Notes under the pieces: generated by a model
Database searches by the model: none
Told to the model about the DNA's origin: nothing
What the model saw: only the letters and a program-made list of their open reading frames with translations
Assembly: GCA_011174795.1 (NCBI GenBank)
Contig: DUEY01000007.1
Location: 70 to 64,069, forward strand
Source: Dehalococcoidia bacterium
Lineage (GTDB): Bacteria > Chloroflexota > Dehalococcoidia > SZUA-161
Direction of reading: 5' to 3'
DNA length: 64,000 nucleotides
Part shown: one piece after another, positions 29,626-39,910 of the stretch
Numbering within the stretch: position 1 is the first letter of the stretch
Layout of the letters: each line of letters starts with the position of its first letter
Program-made: the position numbers and the translations under genes

Positions 29626-31539
29626 TTACGGGAGCAGGTGTTTCAGGTGAGGGAAGGTATCCTCCATATGGGGGAACCACATGGCCTGAGTGAATACCTT
29701 GTTGAAGCCGGGCTCAACGGTCAGCTCTCTGTATTCTACCCGTCTCGCCACTTCGTCGGCTTCCGCTCGCTTGTCCACATTAAGCAGGGCGATGCGTGCT
29801 CCGTCGCCGGCGGCATTGCCAACGGCGTAGACATTATCTAAGGCACAGTCGGGGAACAGCCCGATAACCGCTGCCGCCTCTTTATCTATATAACTGCCGA
29901 AGGCTCCCGCCAGAATGACTTTGTCCAGCCTCTTTACGCCCAGGTGTTGCATCATTATCTTCGCCCCGGCGTACATGGCACCCTTAGCAAGCTGTATGCT
30001 CCTCACATCCTGCTGGCAGACGACGATGTCTCCGCCGATGGCTGTCTCACTCGCCCAGGCGATGACGAACTCCGGTCCCTCGCCAGAGACACGCAGCCGG
30101 CGGGTTTCCACGTCTTTGTTGAAACGCCCGCTCCGGTCTACGATACCCGCCCTTAACAGTTGGGCTGCGGCATCTATTATCCCCGAGCCGCAGATACCCC
30201 TCGCCCCCGCATCCTCCAGTTCGGTGCTCCATCCATCCCTGCCGATAACCTTGAAGCGCACCTCCATGGTGTCAGAGTCTATCTCTATCCTCTCTATGGC
30301 GCCGGGGGCGGCGCGCATTCCGTGCCTTATGCTGGCTCCCTCGAAGGCAGGCCCGGTGGCGCAAGAGGACGAGAGCAGCCTACCCCGGTTGCCCAGTATC
30401 AACTCGCCGTTGGTGCCGACGTCTATTATCAGCACTACGTCGTCCTGATTATAGGGCTCCTCCGCAATGAGCACACCCACGTTGTCGGCGCCGACGAAGC
30501 CAGCCTCTATGGGAAGGACATGCACATATGCCCCGGGAGCTATCCTGAGCCCAAGGTCGCGAGCCTTGAAATCCAGCGAGCGGTGTACGCTGGGGGTGAA
30601 GGGAACCCTGCCCAGATACCGGGGATCGATATTGAGGAAGAGATGGTGCATGCAGGTATTGCCCACGACTGCCATATCGACGATGGCCCGCCGCTTGACA
30701 CCGGCATGGGCAGTCGCCCGCCCCGCGATGTGATTGATGGTCTTGATTATCAGCTTATGCAGGCGCTCGCAACCGCCCTTATGGTTCATCGTATAGCTGA
30801 TGCGGGACATCACGTCCTCGCCGTACTCCGCCTGCGGATTAGCCTCGGATTCGGTGGCTATGACCTCGCCGCTTGCCAGGTCACAGAGATAGCCTGCCAC
30901 CGTAGTCGTCCCTATGTCCACCGCCAGCCCGTAGCCTTTATCGACGAGTCCGGGCTTTACCCTGATGACCTCGCTGCCCTTCCACACCCACACGGTTACC
31001 TTCCAATCGCCCTTCCGCACCACTCCCTGCAAGCCCGCCAGCACCCGGTAGTCAATAGTGAGGTTGTTCAGGCCGAACCCGCTTTCGAGCTCGGCTGTCA
31101 GCCGCTCCCAGTCACCCGTGGCGTCATCCAGGGTGGCGGGAGTCATTTCAACGTAATACCTTGTCACCGCCGGCTTCAGATCAATGGCCCTCTCCGTAGC
31201 CGCCTTGCGTATTATCTGCTTCACCGTCCGGCTCTCCTCAGGCACGAAGACGGCAACGTCGCCGTGGATACGAGCCTGGCAGGCAAGACGGTAGCCGTCG
31301 CGCCGTTGCCGTGCGCTCAACAGCTTCATCTCTGCTTCATTCACCGGGGAAAGGGCATCCCCGCGCGACTCGACCCTGACCCGGCACTTACCACAGGTAC
31401 CCCTATCGCCGCAGATGCCCTCAATGCCCACTCCCAGTTCCCTGGAAGCCTCTTTGATAGTCTTCCCATCGCCGACAGAGGCTCGACGCCCCATGGGTTT
31501 GAATATAACCTTATGCTCACGTCTCTTGCTTCGCGGCAT
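29626..31539 (-). CDS. RACo-like ATP-dependent reductive activator of corrinoid proteins (2Fe-2S ferredoxin plus ASKHA/DUF4445 domains)
   Basis: N-terminal plant-type 2Fe-2S motif CGDRGTCGKCRV, and a C-terminal ASKHA-fold region (DIGTTTV, IDVGTNGE). Start placed at MPRSKRREHKV, which has GGAAGG upstream. Confidence 0.75.
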   Translation of the reverse strand: MPRSKRREHKVIFKPMGRRASVGDGKTIKEASRELGVGIEGICGDRGTCGKCRVRVESRGDALSPVNEAEMKLLSARQRRDGYRLACQARIHGDVAVFVPEESRTVKQIIRKAATERAIDLKPAVTRYYVEMTPATLDDATGDWERLTAELESGFGLNNLTIDYRVLAGLQGVVRKGDWKVTVWVWKGSEVIRVKPGLVDKGYGLAVDIGTTTVAGYLCDLASGEVIATESEANPQAEYGEDVMSRISYTMNHKGGCERLHKLIIKTINHIAGRATAHAGVKRRAIVDMAVVGNTCMHHLFLNIDPRYLGRVPFTPSVHRSLDFKARDLGLRIAPGAYVHVLPIEAGFVGADNVGVLIAEEPYNQDDVVLIIDVGTNGELILGNRGRLLSSSCATGPAFEGASIRHGMRAAPGAIERIEIDSDTMEVRFKVIGRDGWSTELEDAGARGICGSGIIDAAAQLLRAGIVDRSGRFNKDVETRRLRVSGEGPEFVIAWASETAIGGDIVVCQQDVRSIQLAKGAMYAGAKIMMQHLGVKRLDKVILAGAFGSYIDKEAAAVIGLFPDCALDNVYAVGNAAGDGARIALLNVDKRAEADEVARRVEYRELTVEPGFNKVFTQAMWFPHMEDTFPHLKHLLP

Positions 31540-31723
31540 GATACCTTCCGCCTGTAGCTGACTGTAAATCCCCTGCGGCCTAGAATAAAGCAACACTGCA
31601 ACTGGCTCAAGGGGCATGGAGAATTACCTCGATAGAATAACGGCGTGAGAAAACGAGAGGATTTACCTGCGCTCTGGCTCTCGATTCCTTCCAATAAGAG
31701 GTGTGAGGCGTGCTTTAGAGCCT

Positions 31724-32204: not shown

Positions 32205-33482
32205 TTACTCTCCCCGTCTCGCCAGATAGAGTACCAGTCTTCCAACCAGCACAACGCCGATAATGGGGCCAATTACTATCCAGAGGTTGAACGGAGCTTC
32301 CTCATCCGACACCGGAGTAGGCGATGGCGTCGCTGTGGCAGTCACTGGCGATGGTGTTGAGGTAGGTAGTAGTGTGGGAGTGGGCTGCAGCGTAGTTGTA
32401 GGTTGTAGCGTGGTCGTAGGTTGCAGAGTAGTCGTAGGCCCTTCAGTTGGCGTGATCTTCGTAGGGAGCCAGGTAACATCCACCCCCCTCTGCTCAAGCT
32501 GGGGTACATATACATCCACCGACTCCTGACTCAATGGATTCTTTTCTATCCTCAGATTGTCCCCCTCACCTAAACCATCGTTCGCTACCAGTGGAGAGAT
32601 ATCGCCTATCTCGTTATCCCACAAGGATAGATAATACAGTTCAGTGAGTCCAGACAGCGGGGTCACGTCGCTGATATCGTTCCTGTAAAGATAGAGGTGA
32701 GTCGATTCACCACAGTTTGCCAGCGGAGATATATCACTTATCTTGTTTCCAGCCATTTGGAGATATGTCAAGCCGGTGAAACCGGACAGCGGCGTCAGGT
32801 CGCTGATATCGTTATACCCACCCCGGAGGTCGGTTATACCGGTAAGACCTGATAGCGGGGTCAGGTCGCTCACCTGGTTCCTCCAGAAATAGAGGTCGGT
32901 CAGGTTCACGAGATTAGAGAGCGGGGTGAGGTCGCTTATCAGGTTATTCTGAATAGTGAGCATAGTCAGGTCGGTGAGCCCGGACAGCGGCGTCAGGTCG
33001 CTTACCAGATTCTCTGAAATATGGAGCTCGGTCAGGCCGGTAAGACCTGACAGCGGGGAGATATCGCTCACCAGATTCTCCGCAATTGAGAGGCTGGTCA
33101 GGCCGGTTAGGCTGGCAAGCGGGGAGATATCGCCTACCTGGTTTACATGAAGGTGAAGGCTGTGCAGGCTGGATAGGCTGGCCAGCGGAGAGATGTCGCT
33201 TATCTCGTTGTATGAAAGCGACAGCTCGGTCAGGCCGGTGCAGTATTCCAGGCCCGTGAGATCGGTAACGCCTATTAAATCGGCTCTGAGGATAGTGAGG
33301 CTTTCCAGGTCAGACTGATAGATATCTCCGGCAGGCTTGTCAATTGTGTCACGTATTCTGTCCTCAAGTTTGGGGTCTGGGAAGACAACAACTCCATCAG
33401 CCCACGTAACCGAGGGCAACAGGAGAAGCGCCGCCAAGCCCAGAAAGATGATCGCCGGCCTAAGTCTATGGAATACACTCAT
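32205..33482 (-). CDS. Secreted leucine-rich-repeat (internalin-like, 22-residue LRR) protein with a Thr/Pro linker and a C-terminal TM anchor
   Basis: Signal peptide. About 11 repeats of LTGLTxLxLxxNxISDISPLSG. A TTTLQP x3 linker. C-terminal WIVIGPIIGVVLVGRLVLYLARRGE. Confidence 0.85.
   Translation of the reverse strand: MSVFHRLRPAIIFLGLAALLLLPSVTWADGVVVFPDPKLEDRIRDTIDKPAGDIYQSDLESLTILRADLIGVTDLTGLEYCTGLTELSLSYNEISDISPLASLSSLHSLHLHVNQVGDISPLASLTGLTSLSIAENLVSDISPLSGLTGLTELHISENLVSDLTPLSGLTDLTMLTIQNNLISDLTPLSNLVNLTDLYFWRNQVSDLTPLSGLTGITDLRGGYNDISDLTPLSGFTGLTYLQMAGNKISDISPLANCGESTHLYLYRNDISDVTPLSGLTELYYLSLWDNEIGDISPLVANDGLGEGDNLRIEKNPLSQESVDVYVPQLEQRGVDVTWLPTKITPTEGPTTTLQPTTTLQPTTTLQPTPTLLPTSTPSPVTATATPSPTPVSDEEAPFNLWIVIGPIIGVVLVGRLVLYLARRGE
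32383..32436 (-). repeat. 3 x 18-bp tandem repeat encoding TTTLQP
   Basis: GGCTGCAGCGTAGTTGTA / GGTTGTAGCGTGGTCGTA / GGTTGCAGAGTAGTCGTA on the plus strand, inside the LRR gene linker. Confidence 0.7.
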
Positions 33483-33519: not shown

Positions 33520-34116
33520 TCATATGGTGCCTTTGGTACTGGGAACCTCGTCACCCCTTCGATTATCTATGCTGGTGGCGGTATCCAGCGCCTTCGCCAG
33601 TGCCTTGAACAGCGCCTCAACCTTGTGGTGGTCGTTGACACCGCTGAGAATCCTGGCGTGCAGGCTCAGCTTCGCCTCCGCGGCAAATGTTTCGAGGAAG
33701 TGACGCACCAGGTCGGTATCGAGGCCGCTGATATCCCTCCCCTCGAGTGGGGCCTCGATCACAGCGTAGCCTCTACCTCCCGCGTCAACCGCCACCAACG
33801 CGAGCGCCTCGTCCATAGGCACCGCCGCATGTCCCATCCTGACGATGCCCCGCCGTTCCCCCAGCGCTTTATCGAACGCCTGGCCCAGGCATATTGCGAC
33901 ATCCTCCAGGGTGTGATGCTGCCCCACCTCGAGGTCACCCTTAGCCTCAACCCCGATGTCGAACAGGCCATGCCTCGCTATCTGGTCGATAAGATGGTCG
34001 AGCATCCCGATGCCGGTGCTCGCCTGGCACTTGCCCGTACCGTCTATCACAAGCTCCAGTTTGACCTTTGTCTCGCCCGTCTCGCGGTTAACGGTAGCTT
34101 TTCTCCCAGCAGCCAT
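33520..34116 (-). CDS. hisB: Imidazoleglycerol-phosphate dehydratase (monofunctional)
   Basis: IGPD motifs ([29 protein letters not shown]). Start at the ATG 1 nt after the hisC stop, with GGAAGGAGGG upstream. No fused phosphatase domain. Confidence 0.9.
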
Positions 34117-34117
34117 G

Positions 34118-35224
34118 TTACCCTCCTTCCCACTTAGCCAGCGCTGCGACCAGAGCATCGCTGTGCTCCGGCTTGCCCACGCTTATGCGCAGCATATTCT
34201 TTAGAAGAGGTGTATCGAAGTGCCTGATAAAGATGCCCTGCTTCTCCAGTCCCTGCTTTATCTTCCGGGCATTGCCCTTAGCCACCCGGCAGAGGATGAA
34301 ATTCGCCTCGGACGGCAGCGGAGTAAGAACCCCCTGCCTTTTCAGCATGGATGAAAGACGCTTCCGTTCGTCGATGATATCCTTGACATTTTCCCGAAGA
34401 TAAACGATATCCGCCAGCGACTCCCTCATCGCAATCATCGCCGCTGCGTTCACATTGTAGGGCATCTTAATCCTGCGGACGAGTTCAGCAATGTTTGACG
34501 GGAAGATGCCGTAGCCCGCCCTGAGACCACCCAGCCCCGCCCACTTGCTGAACGAACGCAGGACTATGAGATTAGGGTTCGCCGGTACCAGAAGCGCGAA
34601 GGTCTGACCGCTGAACTCGTAATAAGCCTCATCTACCACCACGATCACCCCGGTTTTTAACAGCTCCAGGACAGCATCTGATTTCGTAACATTCCCCGTA
34701 GGATTGTTGGGAGAGGCGATGAAGACGACCTTGGTGCGTTTGTCGAGAGCCGATTTCACGGCGTCGACATCCACATTGTAGGCTTTGTCACGGGGGACGG
34801 TTACCGTCCTGCCCCCGCACACCGCCGTGCTGAACGGGTACATGCCGAAGGTGGGGACGCAATTTACCACCTTATCCCCGGGCTCGAGGAAGATACGCAG
34901 GATCAGGTCTATGAGCTCGTCGCTGCCGCTGCCGGCTACGATATATTCCTGTCCAACCCCCACATAGTCCTCCAACGGCTTCTGGAGCTCCCGGTGCAGT
35001 GGGTCAGGATAGATATGATAGAAAGGGTATTCCGCCAGCGCACGGCGCACACGGGGGGAGCAGCCGTAAGGATTCTCGTTTCCGTCCAGCTTGACCAGCT
35101 TATTAACAGGAACTCCTGAGAGCTCGCTGAGCGCCTCCAAGGGTAAAATAGGCTCATAGGGCTCAATACCCTTTACATCGCCTCTAATGAGGCTCTCAGC
35201 GCTTCTGCGGGCATCGTAGCTCAC
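34118..35224 (-). CDS. hisC: Histidinol-phosphate aminotransferase
   Basis: Class-II aminotransferase with the PLP lysine motif [16 protein letters not shown], in a his-operon context. Confidence 0.9.
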
Positions 35225-36513
35225 TCGCCGCGCTCCTCCTTTTCCATTTCTTCAAGCCTTCTCTCCACCGACAGGGCATGGCCTTGCAGTCCCTCAGCCC
35301 GGGCGATAGCCGCCGACGCCGGCCCGAGTTCCTGCAATGCCCCGTCATCAAGCTCGACCAGCAGTGACAGCTTGAGGAAATCGAGCACGCTGAGCGGCGA
35401 ACTGAAGCGGGCGGTTCCTCCCGTAGGCATGACGTGGCTCGGCCCGGCGGTATAGTCACCAAGCGCTTCCGGTGCCCCGACGAAGATACCCCCCGCATGG
35501 CGTATCCGGTCGATATAGGAACGCGCGTTACGCAGCATGAGGCAAAGGTGCTCCGGCGCGTACAAGTTCACCAGCTCAACAACCTCATCAATGCCTGCTA
35601 CGACAACGAGAGCACCATTACTCTCCAGGGCACGCCGCACGATAGGCTCGCGCTCCATGCCAGCAAGCTGCCGTTCTATCTCTTCGCGGACAGCATCCGC
35701 CAAACCAGTTGATGCAGTGATAAGTACAGCGCTAGCCATCTCGTCGTGCTCCGCCTGGGCAATCAGGTCGGCGGCGCAGAAGACGGGGTTTGCCGAATCA
35801 TCGGCGAGGATGACGGTCTCAGTAGGGCCGTATAGTCCGTCGATAGCCACCGTCCCGAAGACCTGCTTCTTCGCCAGCGTGACGAAGATATTTCCCGGGC
35901 CGCATATCTTGTCTACCTTGGGGACTGATTCGGTGCCGTACGCCATGGCAGCGATAGCCTGAGCGCCCCCGAGCTTGAAAATCCTGTCTACTTTAGCCAC
36001 GCTGGCGGCGGCCAGCGTAGGTGCAGGTAGAGAGCCATCGGGGGCCGGCGGGGTGGTCATTATCACTTCCCCAACCCCGGCTACACTCGCCGGGATAGCC
36101 GTCATCAGCACCGTTGATGGGTACGACGCCTTACCGCCGGGGACATAGATGCCCACACGCTCCAGAGACCGAACCACAAACCCCAGTCCACCCTCGAAGA
36201 ACTCCAGACCCAGATTTCGCTTCTGGGTCTCGTGAAAGCTGCGTATCCTCTCAGCAGCAAACTCGAGAGCATCCAGCAACTCCTTGCTCACCTTATCGCG
36301 GGACGCAACGACCTCCTGTTGCGGCACCTCTAACCGGTTAAGCCGCACACCATCTATCTTCTCGCTGTAGTCCAGAAGGGCTCTGTCCCCACCAGCGCGC
36401 ACATTCTGGAGAATCTGACGCACCGTTTCACTACGCGCATCTCCGGCTAGCTCCACAGGGGAGCGCTCCAGCAGGAGAGATTTCGCAGCTTCCAGGCCTT
36501 CAATTATCCTCAT
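35221..36513 (-). CDS. hisD: Histidinol dehydrogenase
   Basis: ICGPGNIFV and AQAEHD motifs. Length 430 aa. Confidence 0.9.
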   Translation of the reverse strand: MRIIEGLEAAKSLLLERSPVELAGDARSETVRQILQNVRAGGDRALLDYSEKIDGVRLNRLEVPQQEVVASRDKVSKELLDALEFAAERIRSFHETQKRNLGLEFFEGGLGFVVRSLERVGIYVPGGKASYPSTVLMTAIPASVAGVGEVIMTTPPAPDGSLPAPTLAAASVAKVDRIFKLGGAQAIAAMAYGTESVPKVDKICGPGNIFVTLAKKQVFGTVAIDGLYGPTETVILADDSANPVFCAADLIAQAEHDEMASAVLITASTGLADAVREEIERQLAGMEREPIVRRALESNGALVVVAGIDEVVELVNLYAPEHLCLMLRNARSYIDRIRHAGGIFVGAPEALGDYTAGPSHVMPTGGTARFSSPLSVLDFLKLSLLVELDDGALQELGPASAAIARAEGLQGHALSVERRLEEMEKEERGE

Positions 36514-37262
36514 CCCAGATACTCCCCGGCCACCCTGGCGGAATCAGCTACAGACTGCTCACGGAACTCACGGAGCCGCTCTTCCGGAACCAGTTCCAAA
36601 ACCTGCTTCAGCCTGTCGTCAAAAGACTCGAAGAAAGACTCGATCCTCTCGGCAGGCAGATACCTCATCCAGATGAGATATTTCTGAGCAAAGGTACTGA
36701 AATCATCCCAGCTCAATTCCCCGCTGGTAGCTATATACACGAACTCACGCCACCTGTTCAAGGTGATGGCATCGATAAAACCTACCGACACCTCCGAGTC
36801 CGAGCTGCCTATCTCCGAGCGAGCAGCCAATATGCTTTTACTATTGAGCCTCTCCCGGCGGTCGAGTTCGAATTGAAGCAGCCGGTCGAGGAGATTCGCC
36901 ATAGCATCCCCCCCGAGAGCAGACGACTTGCCAAAAAAAGGCCGGTAAATCCGGTAGAGCCAGACTTCATCGGTAACAAGGTGGGAAAGATAACCAGCGA
37001 TAAAAGCCTTCGTGGCACTGCTCAAGCTCGCATCATCGATAAGTTCCGGATAGGCTTCAAACATGAACTTCACACCGCTGGCCCCGTCCTCGCAGTTCAG
37101 AGAGAGGAAATGCGTCTCCTCCCGTCCGGCGCTGATGAAAAAGCGGATGTCCGGCGCCGTAGACCCGAGATAGTAGCTCCCCAGGTTACCTTCCACGACC
37201 GGATGGCGCAATCCCGATAACGCCTCCCGGGCGATCCCTAAATGCAGACAAATCGGAGGCAA
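36510..37262 (-). CDS. Uncharacterised metal-dependent phosphoesterase-like protein (zinc-dependent phospholipase-C-like His/Asp pattern) embedded in the his operon
   Basis: TTG start with AAAGGAG located between the hisG stop and the start. ATGA overlap with the hisD start. Motifs CLHLGIA, GSTAPDIRFF, ETHF and GYLSHLVTDEVW resemble the bacterial Zn_dep_PLPC-type family, from recollection. Confidence 0.55.
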   Translation of the reverse strand: MPPICLHLGIAREALSGLRHPVVEGNLGSYYLGSTAPDIRFFISAGREETHFLSLNCEDGASGVKFMFEAYPELIDDASLSSATKAFIAGYLSHLVTDEVWLYRIYRPFFGKSSALGGDAMANLLDRLLQFELDRRERLNSKSILAARSEIGSSDSEVSVGFIDAITLNRWREFVYIATSGELSWDDFSTFAQKYLIWMRYLPAERIESFFESFDDRLKQVLELVPEERLREFREQSVADSARVAGEYLG

Positions 37263-37274
37263 AAGGCTCCTTTC

Positions 37275-38687
37275 TCAAGAGACAGGGCGGGCCTCCACGC
37301 CCCGCCGCATTGCTTCAATAACATGCGATATCTTCTCTCTCTTGTCACGGCGTCTCATAGCCTCAGTGTTCCCGATGAGACACGCTGAGGACTCAAACAG
37401 GGTATCGATAATCTTAAGTTTGTGCTTGGCTATGGTCGAGCCGGTCTCGGTGTTCTCGATGAGGACGTCAGCATCCTCAGGCAAGAAGGCCTCGGTTGCC
37501 CCCCAGGTAGGGATAAGCTTATAGGGCACCAGATGGTTGTCAAGGGCGTATTTATCGGCTATGTTGACATATTCTGAAGCCAAGCGTAACGCGGAGTCTC
37601 TTCCTAGTCTTCTCAAATCCTTCGTGCTCGAAACCGGCAAATCCTGGCTGACCACAGCTACAATTCTTACCCAGCCAAAGCCGAGCTCAAGCACTTCCTC
37701 TACCGGGCTCGAGGGAAAGCGGAAGCGGTGATCCTGGAGCCAGTCCCTGCCGGTGATGGCCAGGTCGAAGCTACCATTGGCTACCTGAAGAGGCATGTCC
37801 TGGGGCCTGACAACCTTCACCGCAACGCCATCGAGGCCGATCCGGGGCCTTGTTGTCGGCCTGCCTACACTATAGCCCCTGATTCCAAGACCAGCCTTCT
37901 TGAGGAAACCGGCGGTGTGACGCTGCTGGTGACCATCGGGAAGCGCCAGATATATCCCAAACTCACCCTCTATCTGCCGCCTTGTTCCAGACCCAGCACC
38001 GATTTTCACAGCCTCCTCAACATCGGTAGCCACAACCTCCGCAGCAGATAGCGCCGATAGAATCCGGCTCAAGTCCTTACTCTCCAGGCTGTTCCTGTTC
38101 GCCACCAAGTATGCGCCGCCTCCAAGGATAGTAGCGACCGGAACGAGGCCCTGCTCCCGGAGTACGCTGGACGAGGCACCAGTCATTATCGCCAGTTCGG
38201 CATTCTCGGGGAGATACGCGCCGGCTGCTCCCCAAACGGGAAATATCTGGAATTTCCTCAGACGCTGCGTAAGGGCAAAGGACTCCGCCAGATTGGGGTA
38301 TTCAGTGACAATACGCAGACTCTCCGAACGGCTTTTCAGTTCCTGAAGCGAGCCAACCTCGGAAGAATCGGCGGCAACGGCGTAAAGATTCCGCTTCCCG
38401 TAGCCCAGGGCTTGAACCTTTACCACAGCATCGCTGTGGTATTTGACCAGCAGTTCCTCCACCCAGTCAAACCGGCATATACCCAGGTCGTAGTTCCCAA
38501 TAGCTACCTGGATGGCGATGTCCTTCTCGTGAAACACCTTTACGAAGAGACCAGGGGAGGCTTCGCACTGCGGCCGGTAGGAGCGCGACCCCTGGTCGTA
38601 ATCGCCGACGGCAAAGCCAGCTTCCTTCAGCAATACTGCCGTTCTATCCTGAAGCGGCCCTTTGGGCAAAGCAAGCTTTATTTGCAC
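37275..38687 (-). CDS. hisG: ATP phosphoribosyltransferase, tandem duplication of the short-form HisG catalytic fold (470 aa)
   Basis: The two halves (about aa 1-235 and 236-470) each follow the HisG-S pattern (LALPKG.., DL(G/A)I.G.DW, RI..EY.N.A, WGA..A.LPE.A). Only the C-terminal half keeps GATE and the PRPP loop TETGSTI. Confidence 0.8.
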   Translation of the reverse strand: MQIKLALPKGPLQDRTAVLLKEAGFAVGDYDQGSRSYRPQCEASPGLFVKVFHEKDIAIQVAIGNYDLGICRFDWVEELLVKYHSDAVVKVQALGYGKRNLYAVAADSSEVGSLQELKSRSESLRIVTEYPNLAESFALTQRLRKFQIFPVWGAAGAYLPENAELAIMTGASSSVLREQGLVPVATILGGGAYLVANRNSLESKDLSRILSALSAAEVVATDVEEAVKIGAGSGTRRQIEGEFGIYLALPDGHQQRHTAGFLKKAGLGIRGYSVGRPTTRPRIGLDGVAVKVVRPQDMPLQVANGSFDLAITGRDWLQDHRFRFPSSPVEEVLELGFGWVRIVAVVSQDLPVSSTKDLRRLGRDSALRLASEYVNIADKYALDNHLVPYKLIPTWGATEAFLPEDADVLIENTETGSTIAKHKLKIIDTLFESSACLIGNTEAMRRRDKREKISHVIEAMRRGVEARPVS

Positions 38688-39910
38688 CCCGCCTCCTTAA
38701 GGAGCTCCAGCACCTCGACAGGAGACGGCATACGCTGCTTCTTGCCGCTTGACTGGTCTATCAATTCGATCCCAGCCCCACTGCGCATATCGACTATCCA
38801 GCGAAAGTCAGAGGTCTCCTTGTAGCCCAGATCGAACTCTGCGATATAACCCGCTTCCCGTAAAAGCCGGGCTACTTCGAAAGAAGCTTTGAGCCCCTCA
38901 GCGTCCCTGGCCTTGACCAGAATCTTCTCCCGCTGCGGCGACTCCTTGAGCAGATCCGTCAGCTCGTCAACATAGAAGGCGAAGCCCGAGGCACGAACAC
39001 CCTTCCCTCCGACGAGATGGATCAACTCATCGTATCTACCACCCCCTCCCAGCCTGCGCCCCGAACTGTAGAACCCGAAGATTATGCCAGTATAGTATTC
39101 GAAGCCTTTCCCCGAGGTGAAATCAATCTGGTAGCTGTAGCCCAGATTGGTGAGCAAATCGGCAATCCTGGCCAGTTCACTAAGGCTGGACTCGAGGGCT
39201 GGCAGTGGAGCGGAAAAAACGTTCTTCAGGTTCTCCACAAAGCCGGGAGAGCTTCCCTTCAAGCCAAACAGCAGCTTCAACTGCTTCTCAACCTCTGGAT
39301 TTCCGCCCTTCACGTCATCCAGTACATCCATATTACCGGAGAATATCTTGTCCAGCACATCAGCCTCCTCCTCTCCACTTAACCCCAGTCCTTCGAGGAA
39401 AGTCTTCAGCAATCCGGCATGAGCCAGCCGGATCTCCACCGGCTCGATACCGAGCTCTGCCATAGCTTCCAGCGCCAGCGAGATAAGCTCAACATCACCT
39501 TCAGGCTTGCTGCCACCGATGAGCTCGGCTCCACATTGCCAGCGCTCCCGCGACTCCTTCCCTGTGCCCTCAAAGGCGAACATATTCTCCACATAGAAGA
39601 ACCTGACTATGGGCAGTTTCTGGAGGTTCTCCACATAGAGCCTGGCTGTAGGAATAGTTCCGTCGGGTCTCAATACCACCCGCTCACCGCTCCACCCGTC
39701 CCAGTCGAGAAAGGAGTAAACACGCCCCAGCATCTCCGGGGAGAGAGTTCCCGCAGAGGTGAAAAGGTGCAGGTATTCCAGTGTGGGAGTCTTGATCTCC
39801 TGATACCCCCACCCGAGACAGCAGTCTCTAAATCCCGCTTCTACACGGCGGAATTTCTCCATGTCCTGAGGCAGCAAATCACGTGTTCCCTTGCACCTCG
39901 GCACCTTCAT
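38678..39910 (-). CDS. hisZ: ATP phosphoribosyltransferase regulatory subunit (HisS paralogue)
   Basis: HisRS-like fold (GTRDLLP, LRPDGT, GGGGRYD), but the motif-2 FRYE arginine is replaced (FAFE). It overlaps the hisG start by 10 nt. A C-terminal anticodon-binding-like segment is retained. Confidence 0.7.
   Translation of the reverse strand: MKVPRCKGTRDLLPQDMEKFRRVEAGFRDCCLGWGYQEIKTPTLEYLHLFTSAGTLSPEMLGRVYSFLDWDGWSGERVVLRPDGTIPTARLYVENLQKLPIVRFFYVENMFAFEGTGKESRERWQCGAELIGGSKPEGDVELISLALEAMAELGIEPVEIRLAHAGLLKTFLEGLGLSGEEEADVLDKIFSGNMDVLDDVKGGNPEVEKQLKLLFGLKGSSPGFVENLKNVFSAPLPALESSLSELARIADLLTNLGYSYQIDFTSGKGFEYYTGIIFGFYSSGRRLGGGGRYDELIHLVGGKGVRASGFAFYVDELTDLLKESPQREKILVKARDAEGLKASFEVARLLREAGYIAEFDLGYKETSDFRWIVDMRSGAGIELIDQSSGKKQRMPSPVEVLELLKEAGCK

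Follow-up and report, generated by a model that had tools for sequence, protein, structure and literature searches.

A HisZ-linked fusion of two ancient HisG paralogues with complementary residue loss in Dehalococcoidia

ATP phosphoribosyltransferase (ATP-PRT) is a textbook allosteric enzyme and a target for both histidine overproduction and antibiotics, and current mechanistic work on its short form concerns the way in which HisZ places an arginine lent by one HisG_S subunit to its partner. The short form is a hetero-octamer of HisG_S and HisZ, represented by the enzymes of P. arcticus (5M8H/6FCA), A. baumannii (8OY0/23FI), T. maritima (1USY), and L. lactis (1Z7M). It is recognized by a subunit of ~200–230 aa without a HisG_C domain, by a linked hisZ that is distinct from hisS, and by a homodimer in which each subunit carries both the cis-acting residues and the trans-acting Arg. 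The long form, HisG_L, as in E. coli (1H3D), M. tuberculosis (1NH7), and C. jejuni (4YB7), has a C-terminal HisG_C domain (PF08029) and works without HisZ. In P. arcticus HisG_S, the lent residue is Arg56, which extends over the dimer interface as far as the pyrophosphate of phosphoribosyl pyrophosphate (PRPP) in the other subunit; the R56A substitution costs 42-fold and R32A 25-fold, and placement of HisG_S on the HisZ tetramer requires the dimer (PMC9734150). Here, we examine hisG'G, a gene within a 64,000-nucleotide stretch of DNA from a Dehalococcoidia bacterium (positions 70 to 64,069 of contig DUEY01000007.1, assembly GCA_011174795.1; hereafter, the window). Its 470-aa product is a fusion of two ancient HisG paralogues, an N-type and a C-type module, in a single chain.

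Two stretches of the 470-aa protein are matched by both Pfam PF01634 and NCBIfam TIGR00070. On TIGR00070, the hisG equivalog model with a curated cut-off of 75.75 bits, the whole protein scores 225.5 bits; taken separately, residues 1–242 score 103.0 bits and residues 243–470 score 126.8 bits, with each half spanning essentially the entire 183-position profile. The original prediction, made from the sequence alone, had read this frame as two consecutive HisG folds and named a single profile match as an outcome that would speak against it. The domain count bears out its reading, with two domains found by both models and each half above the cut-off. In the self-alignment that it also proposed, the N half matches the C half at 33% identity over 217 columns (E = 1e-39), a similarity well outside chance, and the alignment contains the segments paired in that prediction. 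Across 98 fused proteins, the linker between the modules has a median length of 29 aa (range 23–60) and is rich in Glu, Pro, Ala, and Ser. The source genome is a metagenome-assembled genome (MAG) of 1.8 Mb in 76 contigs and is ~90% complete; its HisG matches are solely the two halves of hisG'G, which is therefore the sole HisG. Together with the position in the his operon, this sole occurrence is an indirect basis for predicting that the protein has ATP-PRT activity.

Much of the short-form pattern is shared by hisG'G: the Pfam scan of the 470-aa protein gives no PF08029 match, a translationally coupled hisZ distinct from hisS lies directly upstream, the catalytic module has a PRPP loop and Glu, and the partner module has the trans-acting Arg. 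Each module alone is short-form-like, whereas the subunit as a whole is 470 aa long with two modules. Unlike the short form, the catalytic dimer is predicted to consist of two diverged paralogues in one chain and to have one PRPP site rather than two. The trans-acting Arg and the cis residues are accordingly not found together in one subunit of a homodimer but are divided between the modules, and the canonical K-G-R is replaced by D-G-H. With the long form, hisG'G shares the catalytic fold and, as predicted here, the reaction; in place of a C-terminal PF08029 domain, it has a second, N-terminal HisG module.

The partition of active-site residues was read from alignments to 5m8h_E (in which the chain index equals native numbering plus 1, R32 is the Arg of S-K-G-R, and R56 is the Arg of S-R-K-L) and to 11te_A, with residue statistics taken over 135 non-identical N-type and 128 C-type modules and a three-way alignment that includes 26 canonical sequences. 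At the position equivalent to R56, N-type modules have Arg in 110 and Lys in 21 cases (131/135 R or K; Arg in 27/27 in the three-way table), followed by the Tyr of an R-x-Y motif in 133/135, whereas the same column is unconserved in C-type modules (P, A, G, V, and others). The opposite holds for the residues that act in cis. The T-G-x-T of the PRPP loop and its preceding acidic residue are found in none of the 135 N-type modules, while the T, G, and T of this loop are present in 24–25 of the 26 canonical sequences and are kept in the C-type (T 125/128, G 127/128, and T or S 128/128). Likewise, the cis R/K of vRxxD is lost or variable in the N-type versus 25/26 in canonical HisG, and the corresponding Arg is present in 24/24 C-type modules. 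The conserved Glu is invariant in the C-type (128/128). A further C-type signature is the replacement of K-G-R by D-G-H, in which Asp and His are each found in 24/24 modules of the three-way table and His in 121 of the 128.

In the window protein, the PRPP signature E-x5-G...D-x3-[ST]-G-x-T is present in the C module only (GATE ... ENTETGST); the N module has GAAG ... MTGASSSV. The original prediction had placed the PRPP loop in the C-terminal copy alone, and both sequences are where it put them. It had also assigned the conserved Glu to the C-terminal copy only, which is correct for the window protein and some relatives but does not extend to the family, as 94 of the 135 N-type modules keep this residue. 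Its description of the N-terminal copy as degenerate is apt for the loss of T-G-x-T. This copy is, however, under constraint almost as strong as that on the C half and keeps the trans-acting Arg. Over the 98 fused proteins, mean pairwise identity is 51% for N modules and 58% for C modules, and the two are correlated (r = 0.93); these values point to an N module that is under purifying selection and co-evolves with the C module. As a separate observation, the Lys of P-K-G (38655–38666, minus strand) is kept in the N-type (K or R in 125/135) despite the lost PRPP loop, and at this position the C-type invariably has the Asp of D-G-H. Conceivable explanations are a second contribution in trans or a metal site.

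The gene directly upstream of hisG'G encodes HisZ, a paralogue of HisS. Its overlap with the hisG'G start is exactly 10 nt, as originally predicted, and an AAGGAGG lies 5–11 nt 5' of this start, within the end of the preceding gene. The HisZ sequence scores 215.6 bits on TIGR00443 (cut-off 271.65) and 213.5 bits on TIGR00442 (cut-off 286.75), thus falling below both thresholds, and the genuine HisS is found on another contig of the source genome with 479.6 bits. The HisZ partners of N/C-type HisG may form a divergent subgroup.

We observe the same architecture throughout the close relatives of the source genome: two HisG matches in one frame of ~470 aa are found in 41/41 sampled genomes of the same family and order, a recurrence that answers the length survey suggested with the original prediction. 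In a sample of 201 genomes of the class, ~115 (~57%) have two HisG matches, ~80 have one stronger match, and 5 have none (hand count), with both matches in one frame wherever two-match genomes were listed individually. The alternative in the other ~40% of the sampled class genomes is the long form, as all four of the single-match genes that were fetched have a C-terminal PF08029 domain. The tandem form is also present in closed, single-contig genomes of the class of 1.4–1.9 Mb, and it is absent from the 143 genomes sampled elsewhere in the phylum, outside Dehalococcoidia. In a public protein collection, more than 120 clusters of ~470 aa share 57–78% identity and, where named, are labeled "ATP phosphoribosyltransferase" and assigned to Chloroflexota or Dehalococcoidia. 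Among species-representative genomes, a scan yields 559 that encode an N-type relative; in the best 80 of these, all Dehalococcoidia or Chloroflexota, N and C modules share one open reading frame (ORF) in 75 and hisZ lies in the upstream flank in 76. Four small closed genomes of the class (L101–L104, from G085, G186, G052, and G055) show a variant in which the N module scores ~130–150 bits on TIGR00070 against ~120 bits for the C module. Their N modules have kept K-G-R and the Glu, T-G-x-T is still absent, and the trans-Arg column is Pro in L103 and Lys in L101.

To place the two halves, every relative was sorted into N-type, C-type, or canonical with clade-specific hidden Markov models (HMMs) built from them. 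A library clustered at 50% identity contains full-length proteins of ~215–250 aa of either type, and the evidence for split genes was limited to loci with genomic context. Several entries in this library that looked like stand-alone N-like proteins (P0157, P0176) were rejected as fragments of fused Chloroflexota proteins. A split arrangement, hisZ – hisG' (N-type) – hisG (C-type) with overlaps of 4–8 nt, occurs in four unrelated contexts. One is a set of four independent metagenome contigs (L012–L015); in L012 (657–3761), the split locus stands beside genes for a RuBisCO large subunit and an inositol-1-phosphate synthase and a weak PaREP1 match, an archaeal-looking neighborhood that is a hint only. 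Another comprises L017 and L018, from a MAG named Deltaproteobacteria / Candidatus Zymogenaceae (G231), which has no HisG besides this pair; three further genomes in a 121-genome sample of the phylum of this MAG have the split form. The remaining two are L019, in which the pair is followed by a Zn_dep_PLPC-like gene and hisD as in the window, and L020. A scan of genome contigs with split N-type queries gave no new split lineages, with all of the 80 best loci belonging to Dehalococcoidia.

In a maximum-likelihood tree of 77 modules, which is unrooted, all N-type sequences form one clade and all C-type sequences another, with Shimodaira–Hasegawa-like approximate likelihood ratio test (SH-aLRT) supports of 99 and 97, respectively. 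Fused and split members occur together in each clade, and the internal sub-groupings are congruent between the two, which indicates that the duplication is old and the fusion secondary. The 470-aa protein is therefore a fusion of two ancient paralogues. The original prediction had called it a tandem duplication: its two modules stand, whereas a local duplication does not, as the same paralogues are separate, adjacent genes in other lineages. Three single-module HisG proteins of 244–265 aa in the 50% library (P0198, P0199, and P0201) have mixed N- and C-type features (P-K-G-x-L-Q, S-R-N-Y-R-P, D-W, P-P-E-D, and N-T-E-T-G) and an extra insertion ahead of G-A-T-E, and by these motifs, they may be near the ancestor of the N/C pair.

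An AlphaFold2 (AF2) model of the 470-aa protein, computed from a 59-sequence alignment, has a mean predicted local distance difference test (pLDDT) score of 87.2 and a predicted template modeling (pTM) score of 0.84, with a disordered linker at residues 222–241. In this model, the N and C modules have the same order of secondary-structure elements, that of the two-domain, periplasmic-binding-protein-like HisG fold. A pTM of 0.84 would be reachable only with the two modules packed in a defined way, and the packing in the model agrees with the covalent pseudo-dimer originally proposed. Foldseek returns single-module matches only, with template modeling (TM) scores of at most 0.42 by query and 0.84–0.90 by target against short-form HisG_S chains, consistent with a HisG_S fold in each module; no solved structure with a tandem HisG architecture was found in this search.

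We consider it likely that the product of hisG'G is a HisG'/HisG pseudo-heterodimer within a single chain, that its two modules make up one composite active site, and that it docks on HisZ and is regulated by it. In this mechanism, a covalently linked pair of ancient paralogues would replace the usual HisG_S homodimer as the catalytic component of ATP-PRT. The C-type module (aa 243–470) would hold the sole working PRPP/ATP site, and the N-type module (aa 1–215), no longer binding PRPP, would be retained as an obligatory dimer partner. From the alignment of R35 with Arg56 of P. arcticus, we infer that this residue of the N module most likely reaches across the interface to stabilize the pyrophosphate leaving group in the C-type site, and the N module probably also provides half of the HisZ-docking surface. 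As in the short-form ATP-PRT, activation of the enzyme and its feedback control by histidine would depend on HisZ, and the resulting holoenzyme would contain half as many active sites as usual.

Some observations weigh against this mechanism and must be considered with the alternatives. The R35 column is not absolute, as it is Lys in 21 of the 135 N-type modules, neither R nor K in 4, and Pro in the class member L103. The C-type site is itself unorthodox, with K30/R32 of K-G-R replaced by the invariant D-G-H, and catalysis with this motif may differ from that of the model enzymes. Moreover, the Glu is still present in 94/135 N-type modules, K or R occupies the Lys position of P-K-G in 125/135, and some N halves from closed genomes outscore their own C halves on TIGR00070; given these retained residues and high scores, the N cleft may still bind a ligand. 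The same residues, kept in the N-type along with D56, Q60, G-N-Y-D, and E-Y-P-N, speak for a mainly regulatory N module, in which case the cleft would bind an effector (ATP/AMP, phosphoribosyl-ATP, or histidine) and tune the C site, with the trans-Arg role secondary or absent. The nearly equal conservation of the two halves fits such a role, and long-form enzymes provide a precedent for a HisG that has gained a regulatory domain in cis. We nevertheless regard it as unlikely, because HisZ, the known histidine sensor of the short form, is still present and tightly coupled, and because the top conserved N-specific feature that is lost in the C-type is the trans-acting R-x-Y, which fits donation better than effector binding.

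Less probable still, in our view, is a purely structural N module that completes the dimer and the HisZ-docking surface with no catalytic residue. It would draw on the need for a HisG_S dimer on the HisZ tetramer (PMC9734150) and on the confident packing in the AF2 model, but it leaves unexplained why R-x-Y is kept in the N-type (97% R/K) and lost in the C-type, with the cis residues showing the opposite pattern. That both modules are active, with two sites per chain, could be argued from the scores of both halves above the hisG equivalog cut-off and from the N halves that keep K-G-R and the Glu; the complete lack of T-G-x-T and its preceding acidic residue among the 135 N-type modules and the variable cis R/K of vRxxD make it highly improbable. 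Finally, the fragmented source MAG, with its 76 contigs and incomplete assembly, raises the question of an assembly artefact or a recent, decaying duplication, the former having been named as a possible refutation of the original prediction. The comparative data refute both to the point where we assign them practically no weight: the halves are only 33% identical and lie in separate ancient clades, the N half is under purifying selection, and all 41 relatives, hundreds of species, and genomes closed as a single contig share the architecture.

With the pseudo-heterodimer as the preferred mechanism, a broader reading, on which we are evenly divided, can be stated. This would be a third class of ATP-PRT besides the long and short forms, consisting of HisZ and an obligate heterodimer of a catalytic C-type subunit with D-G-H and an N-type pseudo-subunit that completes a single site in trans. 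The class would have a single origin, with a two-gene hisZ–hisG'–hisG form in Zymogenaceae-like deltaproteobacteria and unplaced lineages and a fused form in most Dehalococcoidia, apparently including those with small closed genomes, and the N cleft would possibly have acquired a new regulatory role.

The coordinates of hisG'G, its motifs, and its neighbors are collected in Table 1. The stop of the Zn_dep_PLPC-like gene overlaps the hisD start. A gene of this kind is also found 3' of the split hisG pair in L019 (2526–3281), so that its linkage to the his operon is conserved across distant lineages. Directly 3' of hisB in the window are genes for a RACo-type reductive activator of corrinoid enzymes with Fer2 and RACo domains (29626–31617, minus strand) and for a 425-aa leucine-rich-repeat protein (32205–33482, minus strand).

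Table 1. Positions in the window of hisG'G, its modules and motifs, and the adjoining his genes
Feature	Positions	Strand	Basis and remarks
hisG'G, fused N-type/C-type HisG, 470 aa	37275–38687	−	ORF and translation; stop codon 37275–37277; GTG start
N-type module, pseudo-catalytic (predicted), aa 1–215	38043–38687	−	TIGR00070 103 bits; N-type by clade-specific HMMs and tree; no T-G-x-T
Inter-module linker, aa 216–242 (~27 residues)	37962–38042	−	AF2 pLDDT <50 at residues 222–241
C-type module, catalytic (predicted), aa 243–470	37278–37961	−	TIGR00070 126.8 bits; C-type clade; keeps Glu, acidic residue, T-G-x-T, and cis Arg of vRxxD
S34-R35-S36-Y37-R38, N module; R35 aligns with P. arcticus HisG_S Arg56	38574–38588	−	Alignments to 5m8h_E and 11te_A
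MTGASSSV, N module, degenerate, at the position of the PRPP 5-phosphate loop	38163–38186	−	No conserved residue in these columns among 135 N-type modules
D251-G-H-Q-Q255, C-type signature replacing canonical K-G-R (P. arcticus K30/R32)	37923–37937	−	Alignment to 5m8h_E
E411-N-T-E-T-G-S-T418, C module, PRPP-binding loop (predicted)	37434–37457	−	Aligns with D-x-x-x-T-G-x-T of solved HisG
hisZ, 410 aa, HisS paralogue	38678–39910	−	PF13393 197.9 bits; upstream of hisG'G
Operon remainder	33520–37262	−	ORFs; order after hisG'G: Zn_dep_PLPC-like, hisD, hisC, hisB
Zn_dep_PLPC-like gene, 250 aa	36510–37262	−	Pfam PF00882, 29 bits; between hisG'G and hisD
hisD	35221–36513	−	Translation and operon position
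hisC	34118–35224	−	Translation and operon position
hisB/IGPD	33520–34158	−	Pfam PF00475

The original prediction knew of no described HisG with this architecture, and our literature search agrees: the searchable literature, including reviews of his-gene fusion and elongation, holds no description of a tandem, fused, or duplicated HisG or of a Dehalococcoidia ATP-PRT of this kind, although most subscription papers were outside its scope and absence is not proof. Two lines of earlier work offer comparisons. The dead-paralogue activators, or "prozymes", of T. brucei AdoMetDC, DHS, and PRMT1 (PMC5201418, PMC3663545) resemble hisG' in that an impaired paralogue is kept as an obligatory partner of the active one. 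The analogy is one of principle only, as the prozymes are eukaryotic and have unrelated folds, whereas hisG' is a partner that seems to provide a catalytic residue and is fused in most lineages. Within the histidine pathway, gene elongation is described for the half-barrels of hisA and hisF in a review where hisG is named once, in an operon formula only (PMC7284861). In both cases, a gene for histidine biosynthesis consists of paralogous modules that were duplicated, diverged, and became fused; in hisG'G, unlike in hisA and hisF, whole subunits rather than half-domains are fused, and the unfused stage is still extant.

The tandem proteins are abundant in databases, and the consequences for annotation are immediate, as hundreds of Dehalococcoidia proteins are labeled simply "ATP phosphoribosyltransferase" and the split N-type gene would be mistaken for a second active hisG. 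For the evolution of the pathway, a whole-subunit fusion joins the list of his-gene elongations. For the enzyme itself, these proteins would represent a natural dissection of the short-form active site, in which one subunit has kept mainly the lent Arg and the other the receiving site, with fused and unfused stages both extant. If there is indeed a single defined active site per dimer, this natural system would be useful for the study of half-of-sites behavior, trans catalysis, and allosteric transmission, and it may interest ATP-PRT enzymologists as well as students of pseudoenzymes and gene fusion.

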